Made by a program: the position numbers and the translations under genes. A stretch of DNA of 64,000 nucleotides. Source: a phage. This document shows positions 8,426 to 43,296 of this stretch, piece by piece (within the stretch, counting starts at the first letter, position 1; each line of letters begins with the position of its first letter). The notes under the pieces were generated by a model. That model ran no database searches. It saw only the letters and a list, made by a program, of their open reading frames with translations, and was not told the origin of the DNA. The stretch is from the sequence record OZ335961.1; one strand, written 5' to 3'.

Positions 8426-8721
8426 TCAGCTGTAACGATAGCACTCGTTTGATTTACGCTTAGCAACTCGTTGAGAAGTATTATAATCAAAATCATCATC
8501 AATGTAAACTGATTTTTTCAACTTTCTTACTTCACCACGTAATTGACGATTTAGCTCATCTTTAACTTCTGAATCAATGCCTTTCATTCTACGCCATTTA
8601 TCTGAGCGAAAAATGTTTTCAACCATATCTTTATAACTTACACCATCAGGAGCTTTACGCTTTCCGAAATAGTCATAATCACGAACTTTCAAGTCTTTAC
8701 GACGATACGTTTTACCCATGG
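8426..8721 (-). CDS. hypothetical basic protein (likely start MGKTYRRKDL)
   Basis: ORF track 8426..8764; upstream small ORF overlaps so internal Met at ~8721 is more likely start. Confidence 0.45.
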
Positions 8722-8889
8722 AGTTTAATTTCCTTAGCAACTGAACTAAATACAGCACGATCACAAATCAAGTGTTTATTCCATTTAAGTAAAATATAGT
8801 GAACCTCAAAATCATCTACTGCTGTAACAATAACAATATGTCCGTTAACACGATAATACTGATCTCTTTTAATCTCTTTATCAACCATA
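8714..8889 (-). CDS. hypothetical small protein (58 aa)
   Basis: Hand-translated MVDKEIKRDQYYRVNGHIVIVTAVDDFEVHYILLKWNK...; downstream of an early promoter. Confidence 0.35.
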
Positions 8890-8914: not shown

Positions 8915-8950
8915 GTTAATAATACCACAGTTTGAACTTCCTGTAAACAA
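8915..8950 (-). promoter_or_regulatory. early (sigma70-type) promoter
   Basis: Minus-strand GTTTAC -35, ~18-nt spacer, TATTAT -10; approximate. Confidence 0.5.
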
Positions 8951-9029
8951 CTTTGTGAAAATTATTTTAGGGAACGATAAGAAGGGAACGATAGCTTAGA
9001 ATGGTAATATACAGAATGTGAGAAAGAAA

Positions 9030-21744: not shown

Positions 21745-21786
21745 TTGATAGTTGTATAGTACCATAAAGCTTTATGCTTGTAAACC
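21745..21786 (-). promoter_or_regulatory. early promoter with conserved downstream element
   Basis: Same conserved element as 19826-19868. Confidence 0.5.
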
Positions 21787-21815
21787 GTTTTGTGAAAAAA
21801 TTTTGAAATAAAAAA

Positions 21816-31684: not shown

Positions 31685-31987
31685 TTATTTGCCTTTAATT
31701 ACTTTAGCTGCTTCGATAGCCGCTTGCTGAAGGTCATCCATAGACATACCGAATTTAGAAGCAAAGTTATCAATTTTCTTTTCGACGGCATTCAAAGGCT
31801 TGGCCTGTTTACCTTCATTAGCGCCAGGAAGAGCGAGAATACGCTCTTTGTCAATATAAAGGCTTACAAGTTTCTTACGGTCTTTATCGGACAAATCATG
31901 AAATGAATGGGCCTTTTTATTTATAGCGGCTTCTAATTTACCTGCACTCACTCGCGCTTCAGTAATAAATTCTTGATATGTTTTCAT
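31685..31987 (-). CDS. ipII: internal protein II (capsid-targeted)
   Basis: 100 aa starting MKTYQEFITEA (capsid targeting sequence). Confidence 0.8.
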   Translation of the reverse strand: MKTYQEFITEARVSAGKLEAAINKKAHSFHDLSDKDRKKLVSLYIDKERILALPGANEGKQAKPLNAVEKKIDNFASKFGMSMDDLQQAAIEAAKVIKGK

Positions 31988-32028: not shown

Positions 32029-32604
32029 TTAATTACCACGGGCTGCATTAGCAACGGCGTAAGCGTACTGAACATTAGCGTCTTTAAACGTACCTTTAGA
32101 GGTATCTAGTTCTGCCTTAAAGCCGCCTTTAGTCATAACCTCAGCGAATTCTTTACGGAAAGCCATTGCATCAAGACCTTTCCATGTCGATTTGTGCTTG
32201 GCGAATTCAAGACCAGCGTAGTTGACAGCCTTAGCCAATTTATTGTCAATAACCCATTTACCTGCTTTAGGCACAAACACCGGGCCTTTCTGTTTAGAGA
32301 ACAGTTTTAAATTCCAGCGACGAAGATCACCGTCAGCTTTAACAAAAGCTGCGTCCAAGTTACTAGCAACAACATCTTGAATATGGCCAAATTTAAGCCC
32401 ATCAACTTCAATATTTAGATCGGTACGCCAGCGAAGTCCTTCCCAAGCGAAAGCTTTAAAGTCGGAAGCTTTTGTAGCTAAGTATCGTTCAATAGGGGCT
32501 GTTTTAGGGTCAAAACCGTTTCCTCGGTAAGTCCACTCATCTTTATTAATGCCTTTGGCCTTTTCCACAGAAGCTTCAGCGATAAATTCTTTATACGTTT
32601 TCAT
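32029..32604 (-). CDS. ipIII: internal protein III (capsid-targeted)
   Basis: 191 aa starting MKTYKEFIAEA. Confidence 0.8.
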   Translation of the reverse strand: MKTYKEFIAEASVEKAKGINKDEWTYRGNGFDPKTAPIERYLATKASDFKAFAWEGLRWRTDLNIEVDGLKFGHIQDVVASNLDAAFVKADGDLRRWNLKLFSKQKGPVFVPKAGKWVIDNKLAKAVNYAGLEFAKHKSTWKGLDAMAFRKEFAEVMTKGGFKAELDTSKGTFKDANVQYAYAVANAARGN

Positions 32605-36474: not shown

Positions 36475-36522
36475 GTAGTTGATAGTTGTATAGTACCATG
36501 GAAGAACAGGGATGTAAACAGT
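36475..36522 (-). promoter_or_regulatory. early promoter with conserved downstream element
   Basis: GTTTAC -35 plus GTACTATACAACTATCAACTAC. Confidence 0.5.
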
Positions 36523-36658
36523 TTTGTGAAAAAATTTTTAAAAAGTTTTAGGGAATTCTAGGGCAGGGAGGGGTAATTAAAGGATAGGATAATATATTAT
36601 AAAGGGTAGAAACTAAATGATGCCTAGAGAGGTCCAGAAAGGTCTAGATACCAAAAAG

Positions 36659-38234: not shown

Positions 38235-38310
38235 TTCTTGTTTGGTCGAGGCAGTAGGGATCGAACCTACGACCTAGGACTTAGAAGGTCCTTGCTCTTC
38301 CTTCTGAGCT
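38235..38310 (-). tRNA. tRNA-Arg (anticodon UCU)
   Basis: Hand-folded cloverleaf, perfect 7-bp acceptor stem, GGTTCGATCC T-arm, encoded CCA; coordinates approximate. Confidence 0.7.
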
Positions 38311-38314
38311 ATGC

Positions 38315-38389
38315 CTCGTATTTGGCGGACATGCATGGATTCGAACCATGGACCAATTGATTAACAGTCAACTGCTCTACCACTGAGCT
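38315..38389 (-). tRNA. tRNA-Asn (anticodon GUU)
   Basis: Hand-folded; anticodon loop CUGUUAA; GGTTCGAATCC T-arm; encoded CCA; coordinates approximate. Confidence 0.6.
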
Positions 38390-38394
38390 ACACA

Positions 38395-38480
38395 TCCAAA
38401 TTGGTGGGGAGTGGTGGAGTCGAACCACCCGAGTCGCAATGACAATGGATTTACAGTCCACACCGCTACCTCTACGGGAT
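38395..38480 (-). tRNA. tRNA-Tyr (anticodon GUA), type II with long variable arm
   Basis: Hand-folded; anticodon loop CUGUAAA; long variable arm like bacterial tRNA-Tyr; encoded CCA; coordinates approximate. Confidence 0.55.
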
Positions 38481-38489
38481 AACTCCCCA

Positions 38490-38564
38490 AATTAATTTGG
38501 TGGCCCTGGGTGGAATTGAACCACCGTCTGGCGATTATGAGTCGCTTGCTTGAACCTTCCAGCT
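38490..38564 (-). tRNA. tRNA with CAU anticodon (Ile2 or Met type)
   Basis: Hand-folded; anticodon loop CUCAUAA; encoded CCA; coordinates approximate. Confidence 0.6.
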
Positions 38565-38565
38565 A

Positions 38566-38641
38566 CAGGGCCTTGGTGCTGATTGACGGAATCGAACCGC
38601 CGACCTTCTCATTACAAGTGAGTTGCTCTACCTACTGAGCT
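38566..38641 (-). tRNA. tRNA-Thr (anticodon UGU)
   Basis: Hand-folded; anticodon loop CUUGUAA; 1 nt from neighbouring tRNA; coordinates approximate. Confidence 0.65.
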
Positions 38642-38646
38642 AAATC

Positions 38647-38736
38647 AGCAAAACTGGCGGAGGCGATAGGATTTGAACCTATGAGTCGCCGGAGCGACTG
38701 CCGGTTTTCAAGACCGGTGCATTAAACCACTCTGCC
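38647..38736 (-). tRNA. tRNA-Ser (anticodon UGA), type II
   Basis: Hand-folded; long variable arm; sequence GGAGGCGTGGCAGAGTGG... matches T4 tRNA-Ser as recalled; coordinates approximate. Confidence 0.7.
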
Positions 38737-38750
38737 ACGCCTCCAAATAT

Positions 38751-39401
38751 TTATATATTGTTAATTTGATTTAGAATTCTTTTTGCTTGAGTATGACTTA
38801 CGCCAATATGCTTAGCATATTTAGATAATTCACCGCGCTTAGAAAAATCATATAATTTAGAAATTTCTATTCTTCTTTTTCTTTCATCCGCAGAAACTTT
38901 TGCTTCGTTCGCTTTTGCTATTTTACGTTTAGCTTCTTGAGAATGAGTTTTACCAGCAAAGCCATTCTTCATTAATCCATTTGAAGACCATCCTTTTAAT
39001 TTTCCGTTAGAATGTGCCTTTTTAACACCCAATGAAATTAATTCGCGTTGCTGATCTGTCATAGGATAATTATTTATATGATCCCATCCACCTTCACCGC
39101 CAAGTTTTAAATTATACACATCTGGTCTATTTAAAAACTCTTCTGTAACAATATTTTTCTCGGCTTCAAGCATAGATTCTTTATCATCAAAATACTCTAA
39201 TATTTCTTTAGAGAAATTTTCTATACCATACTTATCTTGGGCTCGTTTTAATAATTTACCAGAACCCATATATCCATCATCTAAATTTTCGGTAGAATGC
39301 ACACCAATATAAATTTTATTATTAATTTTATTTGTTATTTTATAAAGATAAAAATGCATATCAGTCCCTAATAAAGAACTGAGCGTCTCACGACGAGTCA
39401 T
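38751..39401 (-). mobile_element. segB: GIY-YIG homing endonuclease (SegB-like) embedded in tRNA cluster
   Basis: 216-aa ORF; N-terminal GIY-YIG motif FYLYKITNKINNKIYIGVHS...GYMGSG; located between tRNA-Gly and tRNA-Ser. Confidence 0.75.
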
Positions 39402-39405
39402 AAAT

Positions 39406-39479
<74 letters not shown>

Positions 39480-39484
39480 AAATT

Positions 39485-39571
39485 TGGTGCGAGAAGTGGG
39501 ACTCGAACCCACAAGGAAATCATTCCGCAGCATTTTAAGTGCTGTGCCTTTACCAATTTGACCATTCTCGC
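39485..39571 (-). tRNA. tRNA-Leu (anticodon UAA), type II
   Basis: Sequence GCGAGAATGGTCAAATTGGTAAAGGCACAGCACTTAAAATGCTG... matches T4 tRNA-Leu as recalled. Confidence 0.8.
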
Positions 39572-39572
39572 G

Positions 39573-39645
39573 CTGGGAATAAAGGACTCGAACCTTTGCA
39601 TCCTGGAATCAAAATCCAGTGCCTTACCAACTTGGCTAATTCCCA
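39573..39645 (-). tRNA. tRNA-Gln (anticodon UUG); 3' CCA apparently not encoded
   Basis: Starts TGGGAATTAGCCAAGTTGGTAAGGCA...; anticodon loop UUUUGAU; abuts tRNA-Leu (dimeric precursor arrangement). Confidence 0.7.
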
Positions 39646-39731: not shown

Positions 39732-40247
39732 TTAAAGCAAATTAAACATTTTAACGGTCGGTAAAACAATTTCTTCTTCGATATAAGCAAATTCTACATG
39801 TTCAACTACACGCAAGAAATCATATTCATAATATTCAGAAGCATGACCAAGAATATCAATGAGGCCTTCAGATATCTTATTACCATTCACAAAGAATAAG
39901 TCAAATACGCGTTCTTCATCTTCTTCGGATTTATTACCAAGTTCAACTTCTATATCAAAGACCTTTTTAATGAATTCTGGATAAAGTTGGTCTGAGAACA
40001 GTCCTTCAACCAAATATTCATATATAAAAAGCTCTTGCTCGCTGAATAAACCATTACCACAATAACGGTCAGCTTTGGTGCTAGAATGACGGCTCTTAAA
40101 CTTCTTCAAAAGATATTTAAATTGTTGGAGCTCATGCTCTTCTACGCCAAACAGTGTTTTAGTTTTATAGTTGTCACCATCATTTTCATAGGTAGTGACA
40201 TCAATTACGTAACCCTTAGGAATTGTGCTGCCTAAACGAATATACAT
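39732..40247 (-). CDS. hypothetical acidic protein
   Basis: 171-aa ORF directly upstream of tRNA cluster. Confidence 0.5.
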   Translation of the reverse strand: MYIRLGSTIPKGYVIDVTTYENDGDNYKTKTLFGVEEHELQQFKYLLKKFKSRHSSTKADRYCGNGLFSEQELFIYEYLVEGLFSDQLYPEFIKKVFDIEVELGNKSEEDEERVFDLFFVNGNKISEGLIDILGHASEYYEYDFLRVVEHVEFAYIEEEIVLPTVKMFNLL

Positions 40248-40543
40248 TTGCTCACCATATTAATGTAAGTATATTTAATACATTCAAGACCCAAAGGATT
40301 CTTGAAAATATCATATTCAAGAGGACCTTTTTCTGTTTCAATAAAGAAATCAAAATTTACTGTATTAAATTTACGGTCTTCCTTTACTAATTTAACCTGT
40401 GAAGACGAACGGTCAATGTAAACCTTTTCAACTTCAAAACACGTTAAAATGCCATAATCATCAATCAAGGCTTTAGCTGCTTCTTGATCATATTTATATC
40501 CATTTTCAATGGATGATACTTTAGCATAAAGAATCATTATCAA
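40232..40543 (-). CDS. hypothetical protein
   Basis: 103-aa ORF. Confidence 0.45.
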   Translation of the reverse strand: MIMILYAKVSSIENGYKYDQEAAKALIDDYGILTCFEVEKVYIDRSSSQVKLVKEDRKFNTVNFDFFIETEKGPLEYDIFKNPLGLECIKYTYINMVSKCIFV

Positions 40544-40959
40544 CCTTCATCAACAATAGTATGCGTATTGGCATTAACTATTTGCCACCAATCAAAGCGA
40601 TTAGAACCATACATCGGTTTGTTTTCATTTTCTTTGATAATATCACGGAGTTCATCTTCGGTGGCGGCTTTCGCGATTAAATCAGCATATCCACCGCGAG
40701 GATAATAATTATCACCTGCAAAAAGTAAAAAGTTTGGTTTAATGTTATTGAACTCTTCAAGAGTAATAACTTTTCCTGACGGTTGAACAATCTCTACATA
40801 TTTATATCCCAATTTTTGAGCCGCATCTACTGCTTCAAGCAAAGTATCATGAGCCCATCCAATTTGACAACCTGGCTTTTCAGATGGATTAGCCTGATAA
40901 TCCGCATACACTTTATACATTCTATTCACCTTTAGAAATTTTATCCATAACAATAGCAA
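40540..40959 (-). CDS. hypothetical protein (likely start MYKVYADYQ)
   Basis: 139-aa track ORF. Confidence 0.45.
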   Translation of the reverse strand: MLLLWIKFLKVNRMYKVYADYQANPSEKPGCQIGWAHDTLLEAVDAAQKLGYKYVEIVQPSGKVITLEEFNNIKPNFLLFAGDNYYPRGGYADLIAKAATEDELRDIIKENENKPMYGSNRFDWWQIVNANTHTIVDEG

Positions 40960-41107
40960 TTAAACCAATTAAAAATGCTACTACAAGTGAAAACACATTT
41001 TCTGCTGTAGTCAATAATCCGCATATAAATCCAACAAACATTGAAAAACTAAAAGCGGAAGCAGAAATTGCAATAGCAACATTTCGAATTAATTCACAAC
41101 GTTTCAT
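40922..41107 (-). CDS. small membrane protein
   Basis: 61 aa, two hydrophobic segments; early promoter upstream. Confidence 0.45.
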   Translation of the reverse strand: MKRCELIRNVAIAISASAFSFSMFVGFICGLLTTAENVFSLVVAFLIGLIAIVMDKISKGE

Positions 41108-41119
41108 TTTATTCTCCTC

Positions 41120-41166
41120 GGTAGTTGATAGGGTAATAGTATCACAACTAAAACCCTATGTAAACA
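41120..41166 (-). promoter_or_regulatory. early promoter
   Basis: GTTTACATAGGGTTTTAGTTGTGATACTATTACCCTATCAACTAC on minus strand. Confidence 0.5.
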
Positions 41167-41183
41167 ACTTTGTGAAATATTTA

Positions 41184-41471
41184 TTACAAAAGATTTTTAG
41201 CAATAATCTTGAGATGTGCCGCAGAAATGTGTTTAGCTTTAAACAACGCAGTTTCTTCAGCAGGAGAGATAATGATTGTAGCACCATCCTTTTTAGCAGA
41301 CCACCCATCACCTAGATAAACAGTACCTTTGATTTCTTCGCCATCAACCAGACTAATCATTGGTTTACCTTCTCGTCCTTTATTTGCTTTAATAACTTCA
41401 GAAGTAAGAGTAGCTTCGGTAATAGTAGAAACTGGGGTAATTGTAGAAGTAAATTCTTTAAATGTTTTCAT
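41184..41471 (-). CDS. capsid-targeted internal protein (IPI-locus variant, 95 aa)
   Basis: N-terminus MKTFKEFTSTITPVSTITE; own early promoter cassette. Confidence 0.55.
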   Translation of the reverse strand: MKTFKEFTSTITPVSTITEATLTSEVIKANKGREGKPMISLVDGEEIKGTVYLGDGWSAKKDGATIIISPAEETALFKAKHISAAHLKIIAKNLL

Positions 41472-41489
41472 TTTATTTTCCTAATTAAT

Positions 41490-41531
41490 TTTGATGAGAT
41501 AATGGTATCACAACTAAAACCCTATGTAAAC
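41490..41531 (-). promoter_or_regulatory. early promoter cassette upstream of IP-like gene
   Basis: Near-identical to cassette at 41825-41862. Confidence 0.5.
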
Positions 41532-41543
41532 AACTTTGTGAAA

Positions 41544-41801
41544 TTATTTTAAATCTTCTAATCGTTTCTTCATCTTAGAACCGTTCTTAGCGATTTCGCC
41601 TGCATCAGAGCATAATGCTAAAAGAGCTTTAACTTTAGTTTGGTCTCCTTTAAAAGATGAAGGATCGACTGCAGCAGCAAGTTCTTTAATACGAGAGAAA
41701 AGACGCTCAGCTTCAGCTAAAGCCATTCCAAGCTTTACTTCCATACCGTGGGAAGATTCAGTAATAGTAGTTTTTGTAGCAAACTCTTTGAAAGTTTTCA
41801 T
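41544..41801 (-). CDS. capsid-targeted internal protein (IPI-locus variant, 85 aa)
   Basis: N-terminus MKTFKEFATKTTITE; own early promoter cassette nearly identical to the neighbour's. Confidence 0.55.
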   Translation of the reverse strand: MKTFKEFATKTTITESSHGMEVKLGMALAEAERLFSRIKELAAAVDPSSFKGDQTKVKALLALCSDAGEIAKNGSKMKKRLEDLK

Positions 41802-41824
41802 TTTATTTTCCTAATTAATTTTGA

Positions 41825-41862
41825 TGAGATAATAGTATCACTACCTCATCAGCATGTAAACA
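41825..41862 (-). promoter_or_regulatory. early promoter cassette upstream of IP-like gene
   Basis: Near-identical to cassette at 41490-41531. Confidence 0.5.
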
Positions 41863-41873
41863 ACTTTGTGAAA

Positions 41874-42570
<697 letters not shown>

Positions 42571-42571
<1 letters not shown>

Positions 42572-43296
42572 TATAGTACCTTTAGTGTATTTTTAATTTT
42601 AGAAAAAAGTTCTTCAAGAGAACCGTCGTTTGTAATTACTAAATCGCCATCATGAATTGGCAATCCAGCTTCTGTAATATGAGTATCATTGGATTTTTGA
42701 CCAGGACGAACTACATGAATTACTGTAGCACCCATCGCCCTAGCCGCATCCATTTCATGATCTTGACGAGTATCAGGAACGATATAATAATCATAGCCTG
42801 AGTTAAATTTATCAAGATAATCTAAAGCAAATAATTTTACCCAATACATGCGGTCGAAGTTATTAACAATCAAATCCGTACCTAGGGCTTGCATCAGACG
42901 ACGGACTGACCATTGATCTTCAATATTATTTATAACATCAGCAATCTTGTTAAATGCTACGAAAGTAACTGATTCTTTTCCTTCGTCATCAAAAACAAAC
43001 ACGCCTTTAATTGGGCTTTTACTATTAAGATAGCAAAATGCTTGTTCCATAATCGTAATTACTTCTAATTTAGTCAAATTTAAATTAGTCTCACGATCAT
43101 AGTCAATTCCTTCAAACTCTTTACGAGTTAAGCAAGGATAGTCAGTGTTTGCTGCAAACACGCCCCATGCATAAGCCAATGCATCTTTAATAGGACCGGC
43201 AAGTTGATATTTAGCTGCAGAATAATTATTCATGATAAAATCTGCAGTAGTATCTTTTCCACTACGCTTTACACCACTTAAAAAGATTAGTTTCAT
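42571..43296 (-). CDS. 1: gp1 deoxynucleoside monophosphate kinase
   Basis: 241 aa; P-loop GVKRSGKDT. Confidence 0.9.

Follow-up and report, generated by a model that had tools for sequence, protein, structure and literature searches.

The stretch of phage DNA analysed here (sequence record OZ335961.1, 64,000 nucleotides (nt), hereafter the window) carries on its minus strand, in this order, gene 1, 57A, 57B, ip5, ipI and tRNA.4. Two of these genes encode small internal proteins (IPs): ip5 (41544-41801) specifies an 85-residue precursor and ipI (41184-41471) the 95-residue precursor of IPI*. Each of ip5, ipI and tRNA.4 is preceded by a cassette of about 72 nt that combines a T4-early-type promoter, an inverted repeat across the promoter spacer and the -10 element, a leader and a Shine-Dalgarno sequence. 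Cassette 1 (41802-41873) lies between 57B and ip5, cassette 2 (41472-41543) between ip5 and ipI, and cassette 3 (41108-41183) between ipI and tRNA.4, all on the minus strand. The anchors of the locus are conserved, with 57B (41874-42329, minus strand) on the left and tRNA.4 (40922-41107, minus strand) on the right. The region is thus very probably the hyperplastic IP locus found between 57B and tRNA.4 in Tequatrovirus, here with ip5 and then ipI in tandem. This locus is already known, being the ordinary variable locus for internal proteins in T4-like phages. No result of this analysis contradicted the identification of ip5 and ipI. The original prediction, made from the sequence alone, had described two adjacent minus-strand open reading frames (ORFs) of 85 and 95 codons that both begin with MKTFKEF, and these were found as described. 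The value of the present analysis is mainly corrective, as the window holds no new pair of effectors.

The 95-residue product matched the Pfam family PF11634 (IPI_T4) over the full model (positions 1-76), with a score of 178.7 bits (cut-off 25) and an E value of 2e-53. It is identical to T4 IPI at 93 of 95 positions (97.9% in a tblastn comparison with T4 ipI), and both differences are conservative: T11I falls in the propeptide, V67I in the mature part. The solved IPI* chain (PDB 2JUB) aligns through its residues 1-76 to residues 20-95 of this product, 75 of the 76 being identical (1.6e-44). Like its T4 counterpart, the gene is located between 57B and tRNA.4, a position shared with RB14, and encodes a 95-residue precursor with a 19-residue propeptide ending in ITE (codons 1-19, 41415-41471), the single [LI]xE site ending at E19. 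Unlike in T4, ipI is here the second IP gene, ip5 being interposed on the 57B side, and a chimeric promoter cassette takes the place of the T4 cassette between 57B and ipI. Judged by its sequence, the 95-residue ORF is IPI itself. The claim that IPI had been replaced by divergent proteins with unknown targets therefore fails for this ORF: with such identity to T4 IPI and 2JUB, it is neither divergent nor devoid of a known target, and one of the two ORFs in question is a close ortholog of a characterised T4 protein. IPI* inhibits the CT596 GmrSD type IV restriction enzyme (PMC9026906; PMC3012670), and given the identity of the mature protein, residues 20-95 are predicted to be an inhibitor of the same enzyme.

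The reading of MKTFKEF as a capsid-targeting sequence (CTS) was correct, since IPII begins with MKTYQEF and IPIII with MKTYKEF, and the biology of such leaders is described in PMC9026906. A six-frame motif scan found the CTS motif in two further ORFs of the window only, ipII (100 codons, 31685-31987) and ipIII (191 codons, 32029-32604), which form the second IP locus, also on the minus strand. The IP set of this phage is accordingly the full T4 set of IPI, IPII and IPIII, plus Ip5. The propeptides of IPs (10 to 19 residues) target the prohead core, with residues 4 and 7 being critical (PMC9026906; PMC3012670), and the gp21 protease cuts after L/I-x-E (PMC9026906). Each IP is packed in about 360 copies per head, and these are ejected along with the DNA (PMC9026906; PMC3012670).

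The 85-residue product is identical at all 85 positions to Ip5 of phage RB15 (CAA84462; ip5 coding sequence in Z35082), and PHROG 3499, an internal head protein family, matches it over its full length (E value 1.2e-49). Z35082 was deposited in 1994 and names ip7, ip8 and ip9 besides ip5; Ip5 is annotated in RB14 and T2 as well. By sequence identity, then, the 85-residue ORF is Ip5, a protein named in 1994 and not a new one. Of the two proteins, only this one can still be regarded as a candidate injected effector in the sense of the original prediction. The literature search returned no paper pairing ip5 with T-even or bacteriophage. Ip5 has F4 and F7 at the CTS-critical aromatic positions. Its codons 1-15 (41757-41801) correspond to the capsid-targeting propeptide MKTFKEFATKTTITE, and the gp21 cut is predicted after E15, in the motif I13-T14-E15, the same ITE tripeptide as in IPI. 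The predicted mature Ip5 has 70 residues, a mass of 7.5 kDa and a pI of 9.2. An AlphaFold2 model consists of two long antiparallel helices (17-44 and 54-84; pLDDT 71), i.e., a generic helical hairpin. Searches of Pfam, NCBIfam and PDB sequences with Ip5 gave no significant match, and a Foldseek search of the model against PDB gave nothing at E <= 0.001. The only matches, LSD1 tower domains and de novo helical hairpins, were weaker than this and were treated as uninformative.

Ip5 is common among T-even phages, being present at 80% identity or more in about 270 phage records and at 95% or more in 250 of them. An exhaustive HMMER search of 1.84 billion proteins retrieved three cluster representatives, namely Ip5 itself and two T-even paralog clusters of about 94 residues, and no homolog outside T-even phages; a word-indexed search gave five close relatives. 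A paralog with 48% identity is found in Mosigvirus, where it occupies the e-denV interval, the other IP locus. Its C-terminal end differs from that of Ip5. The last 12 nt of 57B, GATTTAAAATAA (DLK-stop), recur at the end of ip5 and belong to a 123-nt repeat described below. From this sequence overlap, the C-terminal DLK of Ip5 may derive from the recombination repeat.

An injected anti-defence role of internal proteins, as the original prediction had assumed, is established for Ip1, Ip2 and Ip3 of T4, which are non-homologous and each inhibit one distinct GmrSD subtype (PMC12373910). T4 Ip2 and Ip3, the inhibitors of GmrSD-ECOR21 and GmrSD-ECOR17, resemble Ip5 in being small, basic, CTS-led products of IP-locus genes, but they have no sequence similarity to Ip5 beyond the leader. 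By analogy to IPI-III, the MKTFKEF leader would direct the IPI and Ip5 precursors to the scaffold core of the prohead, and gp21 would trim them after I-T-E, at E19 in IPI and at E15 in Ip5. The trimmed IPI* and Ip5* would then be packed and injected together with the DNA. IPI* would next block CT596-type GmrSD, while Ip5* would most likely bind and block another first-line host defence acting on incoming T-even DNA. On this analogy Ip5, which is encoded in one of the two IP loci with early-promoter cassettes on both sides, is probably an injected anti-defence factor.

Several observations weigh against this proposal. Data on Ip5 in virions or on its injection were not found in the literature searched. 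Further [LI]xE sites are present in Ip5 at E30 and E40, so that the mature form could be shorter than predicted. The T4 late-promoter-like sequence TATAAATA is absent from the cassettes, and the late expression needed for prohead loading must come from elsewhere. The nearest TATAAATA on the coding strand is located at 42927-42934 (minus strand), inside gene 1 and upstream of 57A-57B-ip5-ipI; read-through from this site is a possible late source, in which case the cassette hairpins would be transcribed. In a 2025 study, ip4-10 showed no reproducible inhibition of GmrSD variants, which means that the simplest analogy for Ip5, another GmrSD inhibitor, already has negative data. Phage T2, which encodes Ip5, is still restricted by GmrSD-ECOR21 and GmrSD-ECOR17 (PMC12373910). 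The target of Ip5 is probably not among the GmrSD variants already tested.

Within the anti-defence proposal, Ip5 could be an injected inhibitor of a further type IV enzyme, either of the GmrSD family or another modification-dependent one, an option that we regard as plausible but tentative. It has the precedent that Ip1, Ip2 and Ip3 block different GmrSD subtypes despite their lack of homology, and the GmrSD family is very diverse, with only 15 enterobacterial groups sampled; the failure of ip4-10 on the active GmrSD variants tested and the restriction of T2 by the ECOR21 and ECOR17 enzymes speak against it. It seems somewhat unlikely that Ip5, once injected, inhibits a host defence other than a GmrSD-type restriction enzyme; the negative results for ip4-10 and the restriction of T2 by two GmrSD enzymes are compatible with this reading. 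If true, the 70-residue helical-hairpin mature Ip5 would be a new, T-even-restricted anti-defence family. The target of Ip5 is a well-defined question that can be tested, since a particular GmrSD enzyme has been assigned to each of Ip1-3. A phage carrying Acb1, Ip5, IPI, IPII and IPIII together offers a convenient natural background for such tests.

Ip5 might instead be mainly a structural or DNA-condensing component of the head core, with no specific host target. Its predicted mature form is small and basic like IPI-III, IP lysines contact the packaged DNA, IPIII mutants are slower in head assembly (PMC3012670; PMC9026906), and no GmrSD target was found for ip4-10, all of which fit such a role. 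On the other hand, Ip5 is dispensable in kind, as T4 does without it, it is strongly conserved across the 250 records mentioned above, and all three T4 IPs of known function are specific defence inhibitors. The variability of the locus also fits host-specific accessory functions: 40 CTS-bearing ORFs located 3' of 57B in 36 IMG/VR contigs fall into at least 13 interchangeable families, unrelated outside the leader. We consider a mainly structural role unlikely.

We then turn to the cassettes. Repoila's IP element is reportedly about 70 bp long and contains a T4 early promoter whose -35/-10 region holds a stem-loop. In the window, a promoter scan found TTTACA-17-TAC[T/C]AT with a TG extension in all three cassettes, in line with the early promoter that had been predicted for the two blocks upstream of ip5 and ipI. 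These blocks (41802-41873 and 41472-41543) are a real repeat that includes the promoter. The description of them as near-identical was overstated: 63 of 72 positions match (87.5%), with the mismatches concentrated in the promoter spacer, where the left-hand segments differ. Nor are the repeated early-promoter units only two, as had been proposed, since a third copy, cassette 3, precedes tRNA.4 and shares 93% and 80% identity with the first two (repeat family D2). The similarity extends beyond the blocks into a 123-nt repeat with a period of 330 (41437-41559 and 41767-41889; 105 of 123 positions identical, 85%; repeat family D1). This repeat takes in the final 12 or so nt of the preceding gene, then the intergenic stretch and about the first 12 codons, and the homology of the cassettes before ip5 and ipI runs on through the first 7 codons.

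In cassette 1, the -35 element TTTACA lies at 41855-41860 and the TG-extended -10 element TACTAT at 41832-41837. A 13-bp hairpin with matching arms (41822-41851) holds the -10 hexamer within its 3' arm, and the leader carries the Shine-Dalgarno sequence AGGAAA. The predicted fold has a free energy of -14.8 kcal/mol (z score -2.8). Cassette 3 has its -35 element at 41159-41164, its -10 element at 41136-41141 and a different leader, CAACTACCGAGGAGAATAAA; its hairpin, within 41123-41169 and with the arms ATAGGGT/ACCCTAT, gives -16.9 kcal/mol (z score -2.25). Cassette 2 keeps the promoter (-35 element at 41525-41530, -10 element TACCAT at 41502-41507) and has no hairpin (-4.3 kcal/mol, z score +0.9). 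Its left spacer segment, ATAGGGTTTTAGTTG, is of the cassette 3 type; the right arm with the leader, TATCTCATCAAAATTAATTAGGAAAATAAA, follows cassette 1. The alignment thus shows cassette 2 to be a mosaic of its two neighbours. At the varied column of its -10 element, 22 of 23 sampled cassettes have a T. From sequence, TACCAT could slightly weaken the early promoter of ipI itself in this phage.

The cassettes of the window were aligned with those of T4, T2, RB15, RB14, RB3, CM8 and T4_ev240. Three segments reassort across this alignment, namely the left spacer arm, the right arm and the leader. The left arm occurs as TGATGAGGTA, ATAGGGT.... or GAT[A/G]GGGTA, and the right arm as TA[C/T]CTCATCA or ACCCTATC. 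The leader is AAAATTAATTAGGAAAATAAA before ip genes and CAACTAC[C/T]GAGGAGAATAAA before tRNA.4. Covariation of the hairpin was evaluated for two alternative helices in 23 cassettes from 10 phages and contigs, with 500 shuffles. The outcome did not exceed the shuffle controls: double-change cells numbered 8 versus 5.1+/-2.0 and 6 versus 3.4+/-1.4, values reached by 57 and 35 of the 500 shuffles, respectively. Individual compensatory changes are present among the stems, for example GATGAGG/CCTCATC versus GATAGGG/CCCTATC. In single cassettes the hairpins are more stable than shuffled sequence, but since covariation across these mixed cassettes is not above that of the shuffles, we do not claim selection for pairing, and the stem may be merely inherited. 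A scan of the cassette region for intrinsic terminators gave no site.

In a pairwise alignment with T4, the window differs by a single 329-nt gap that corresponds to ip5 plus one cassette, i.e., a clean insertion of about 330 bp. In the alignment with T2, identity is 98% up to CTS codon 7, collapses over the rest of the gene and is regained in cassette 3. The layout of the window can be described as that of T4 with one gene-plus-cassette unit added, and equally as that of T2 with ip7 swapped for ipI. The chimeric cassette 2, with its hairpin lost, marks a past crossover. In the simplest history, which we infer from these alignments, a genome of the T2 type and one of the T4 type would have undergone a single unequal homologous crossover that joined ip5 to ipI, within a shared block of about 50 nt made of the cassette right arm, the leader and the MKTFKEF codons. 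The same arrangement would result if an excised cassette circle had integrated, and cassette mini-circles have been shown experimentally in RB49 and phi1 (PMC2839356). The proposal that the locus is fit for cassette exchange by recombination is borne out by the chimeric middle cassette and the clean insertion relative to T4.

The ip5-ipI junction was found in 12 phage records, among them RB14, RB3, RB5-7, RB9, RB10, CM8 and T4_ev240. RB14 is 97.8% identical to the window over 1.4 kb, has the same order 57B-ip5-ipI-tRNA.4, and its cassette between ip5 and ipI is likewise chimeric. Phages of the RB14 group show small sequence differences from the window, for example in the -10 element, which is TACCAT in the window, and their cassette break points vary. 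Chimeric cassettes resembling cassette 2 are also present in T2 (between ip5 and ip7), RB14, RB3 and T4_ev240. In CM8 the break point lies further to the right than in the other phages, so such exchanges recur. Unlike the window, CM8 and T4_ev240 have ip8 added after ipI. In Shigella phage CM8 (NC_054939.1, 70933-72593), a truncated 57B is preceded by a second copy of ipI and followed by ip5-ipI-ip8-tRNA.4; together with the ip5-ipI-ip8 order of T4_ev240, this represents further rearrangement at the same cassettes.

T2 (ip5-ip7) and RB15 (ip5-ip9-ip7-ip8), studied by Repoila et al. 1994, share the cassette architecture of the window, with an early promoter, a stem-loop over the spacer and -10 element, a conserved leader and a CTS. 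The Ip5 found here is identical to that of RB15, and the second IP gene is ip7 or ip9 where the window has ipI. As cited in later papers, Repoila et al. 1994 reported polymorphic IP loci with a conserved leader and flanking promoter/stem-loop elements (PMC2839356; PMC4122927; PMC12373910; PMC3012670), and two of these papers place such PeSL-like elements at both IP loci (PMC2839356; PMC4122927). PeSL (promoter-early stem-loop) elements are mobile regulatory cassettes known from RB49, phi1 and further T4-like phages (Arbiol 2010; Comeau 2014). These short repeats, each a promoter with a stem-loop, lie on either side of small accessory ORFs, serve as recombination substrates for the insertion, deletion or replacement of single genes, and leave chimeric cassettes behind. 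The window is similar in that three promoter-like sites flank ip5 and ipI and in that it departs from T4 by a single ORF with its cassette. It is dissimilar in that its cassettes do not have the GC-rich G(n)-loop-C(n) stem/terminator with a sigma70-like promoter homologous to the RB49 PeSLs; their stems are AT-rich, overlap the -10 region and contain no site resembling an intrinsic terminator. This agrees with Arbiol et al. 2010, who considered the T-even IP elements, with their T4 early-promoter consensus and weaker AT-rich stems, as analogs and not homologs of PeSLs (PMC2839356). It is established that IP genes are shuffled by way of promoter cassettes (Repoila 1994; Arbiol 2010), and the window is a textbook case of it at the T-even IP locus, in which the scar of the crossover, a hairpin-less chimeric promoter, is still readable. 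A paper on SegB amplification (PMC13096335) does not involve the IP locus.

The repeated blocks could in principle be three independent T4 early promoters that are alike by consensus and unrelated to recombination. The 19-mer TTTCACAAAGTTGTTTACA, in the upstream half of the cassette, was counted 6 times in the window where chance would give 0.04, so that the repetition is not accidental, and three of the six copies are at unrelated early genes, so this part of the cassette is the generic T4 early-promoter consensus. The similarity, however, reaches well beyond the promoter: leader, Shine-Dalgarno sequence and first codons are included, as are the last 12 nt of the upstream genes. Cassette 2 is an exact mosaic of the other two, the end points of the insertion and replacement relative to T4 and T2 fall inside cassettes, the mosaic break points vary between phages, and comparable cassettes make mini-circles in RB49 and phi1 (PMC2839356). 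Independent promoters are on these grounds a very improbable explanation of the repeats. The exact or near copies of TTTCACAAAGTTGTTTACA outside the locus (8942-8960, 21779-21797 and 36513-36531, minus strand) precede unrelated small early ORFs, one of them of 58 codons (8712-8888), and the spacers and leaders at these sites differ from those of the cassettes.

The idea that the ancestral ipI gave way to a pair of new and divergent capsid-targeted proteins of unknown target, suggested by a CTS on both ORFs and by two IP genes where T4 has one, is refuted, since one ORF is IPI by its identity to T4, its score above the Pfam gathering threshold and its match to 2JUB, the other is the named Ip5, and the whole arrangement exists in RB14 and RB3.

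Among the neighbouring genes, gene 1 (42571-43296, minus strand) encodes a deoxynucleoside monophosphate kinase and is followed by 57A (42329-42571, minus strand). The left anchor, 57B, named so in RB14 and T4, belongs to the Acb1 anti-CBASS phosphodiesterase family (Pfam Acb1, 2.6e-60) and is full-length, so that Acb1, Ip5 and IPI, all known or candidate anti-defence proteins, are encoded one directly after the other. The right anchor, named tRNA.4 in RB14 and T4, encodes a predicted membrane protein of 61 residues (PHROG 1692, 6e-35). Overall, the window is a mosaic Tequatrovirus whose best 20-kb matches in the phage collection searched are 95-98% identical, and no record identical to it was found in this collection.

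Further along lies a tRNA.3-like ORF (40540-40920, PHROG 1411). Between it and the tRNA cluster, ORFs of 171 and 103 codons (39732-40543, minus strand) had no Pfam match; the gene content of this segment is unlike that of T4 and similar to that of T2, whose equivalent ORF is annotated RB32ORF134c. The tRNA cluster itself (38243-39645) has the order Gln-Leu-Gly, a GIY-YIG/NUMOD3 homing-endonuclease ORF (38751-39401, minus strand) and Ser-Thr-Met(CAT)-Tyr-Asn-Arg. The tRNA-Pro that is located between Gly and Ser in T4 and RB14 was not detected in the window, and the endonuclease gene exactly fills the gap. This arrangement is present in 57 phage records at a coverage of at least 80%.

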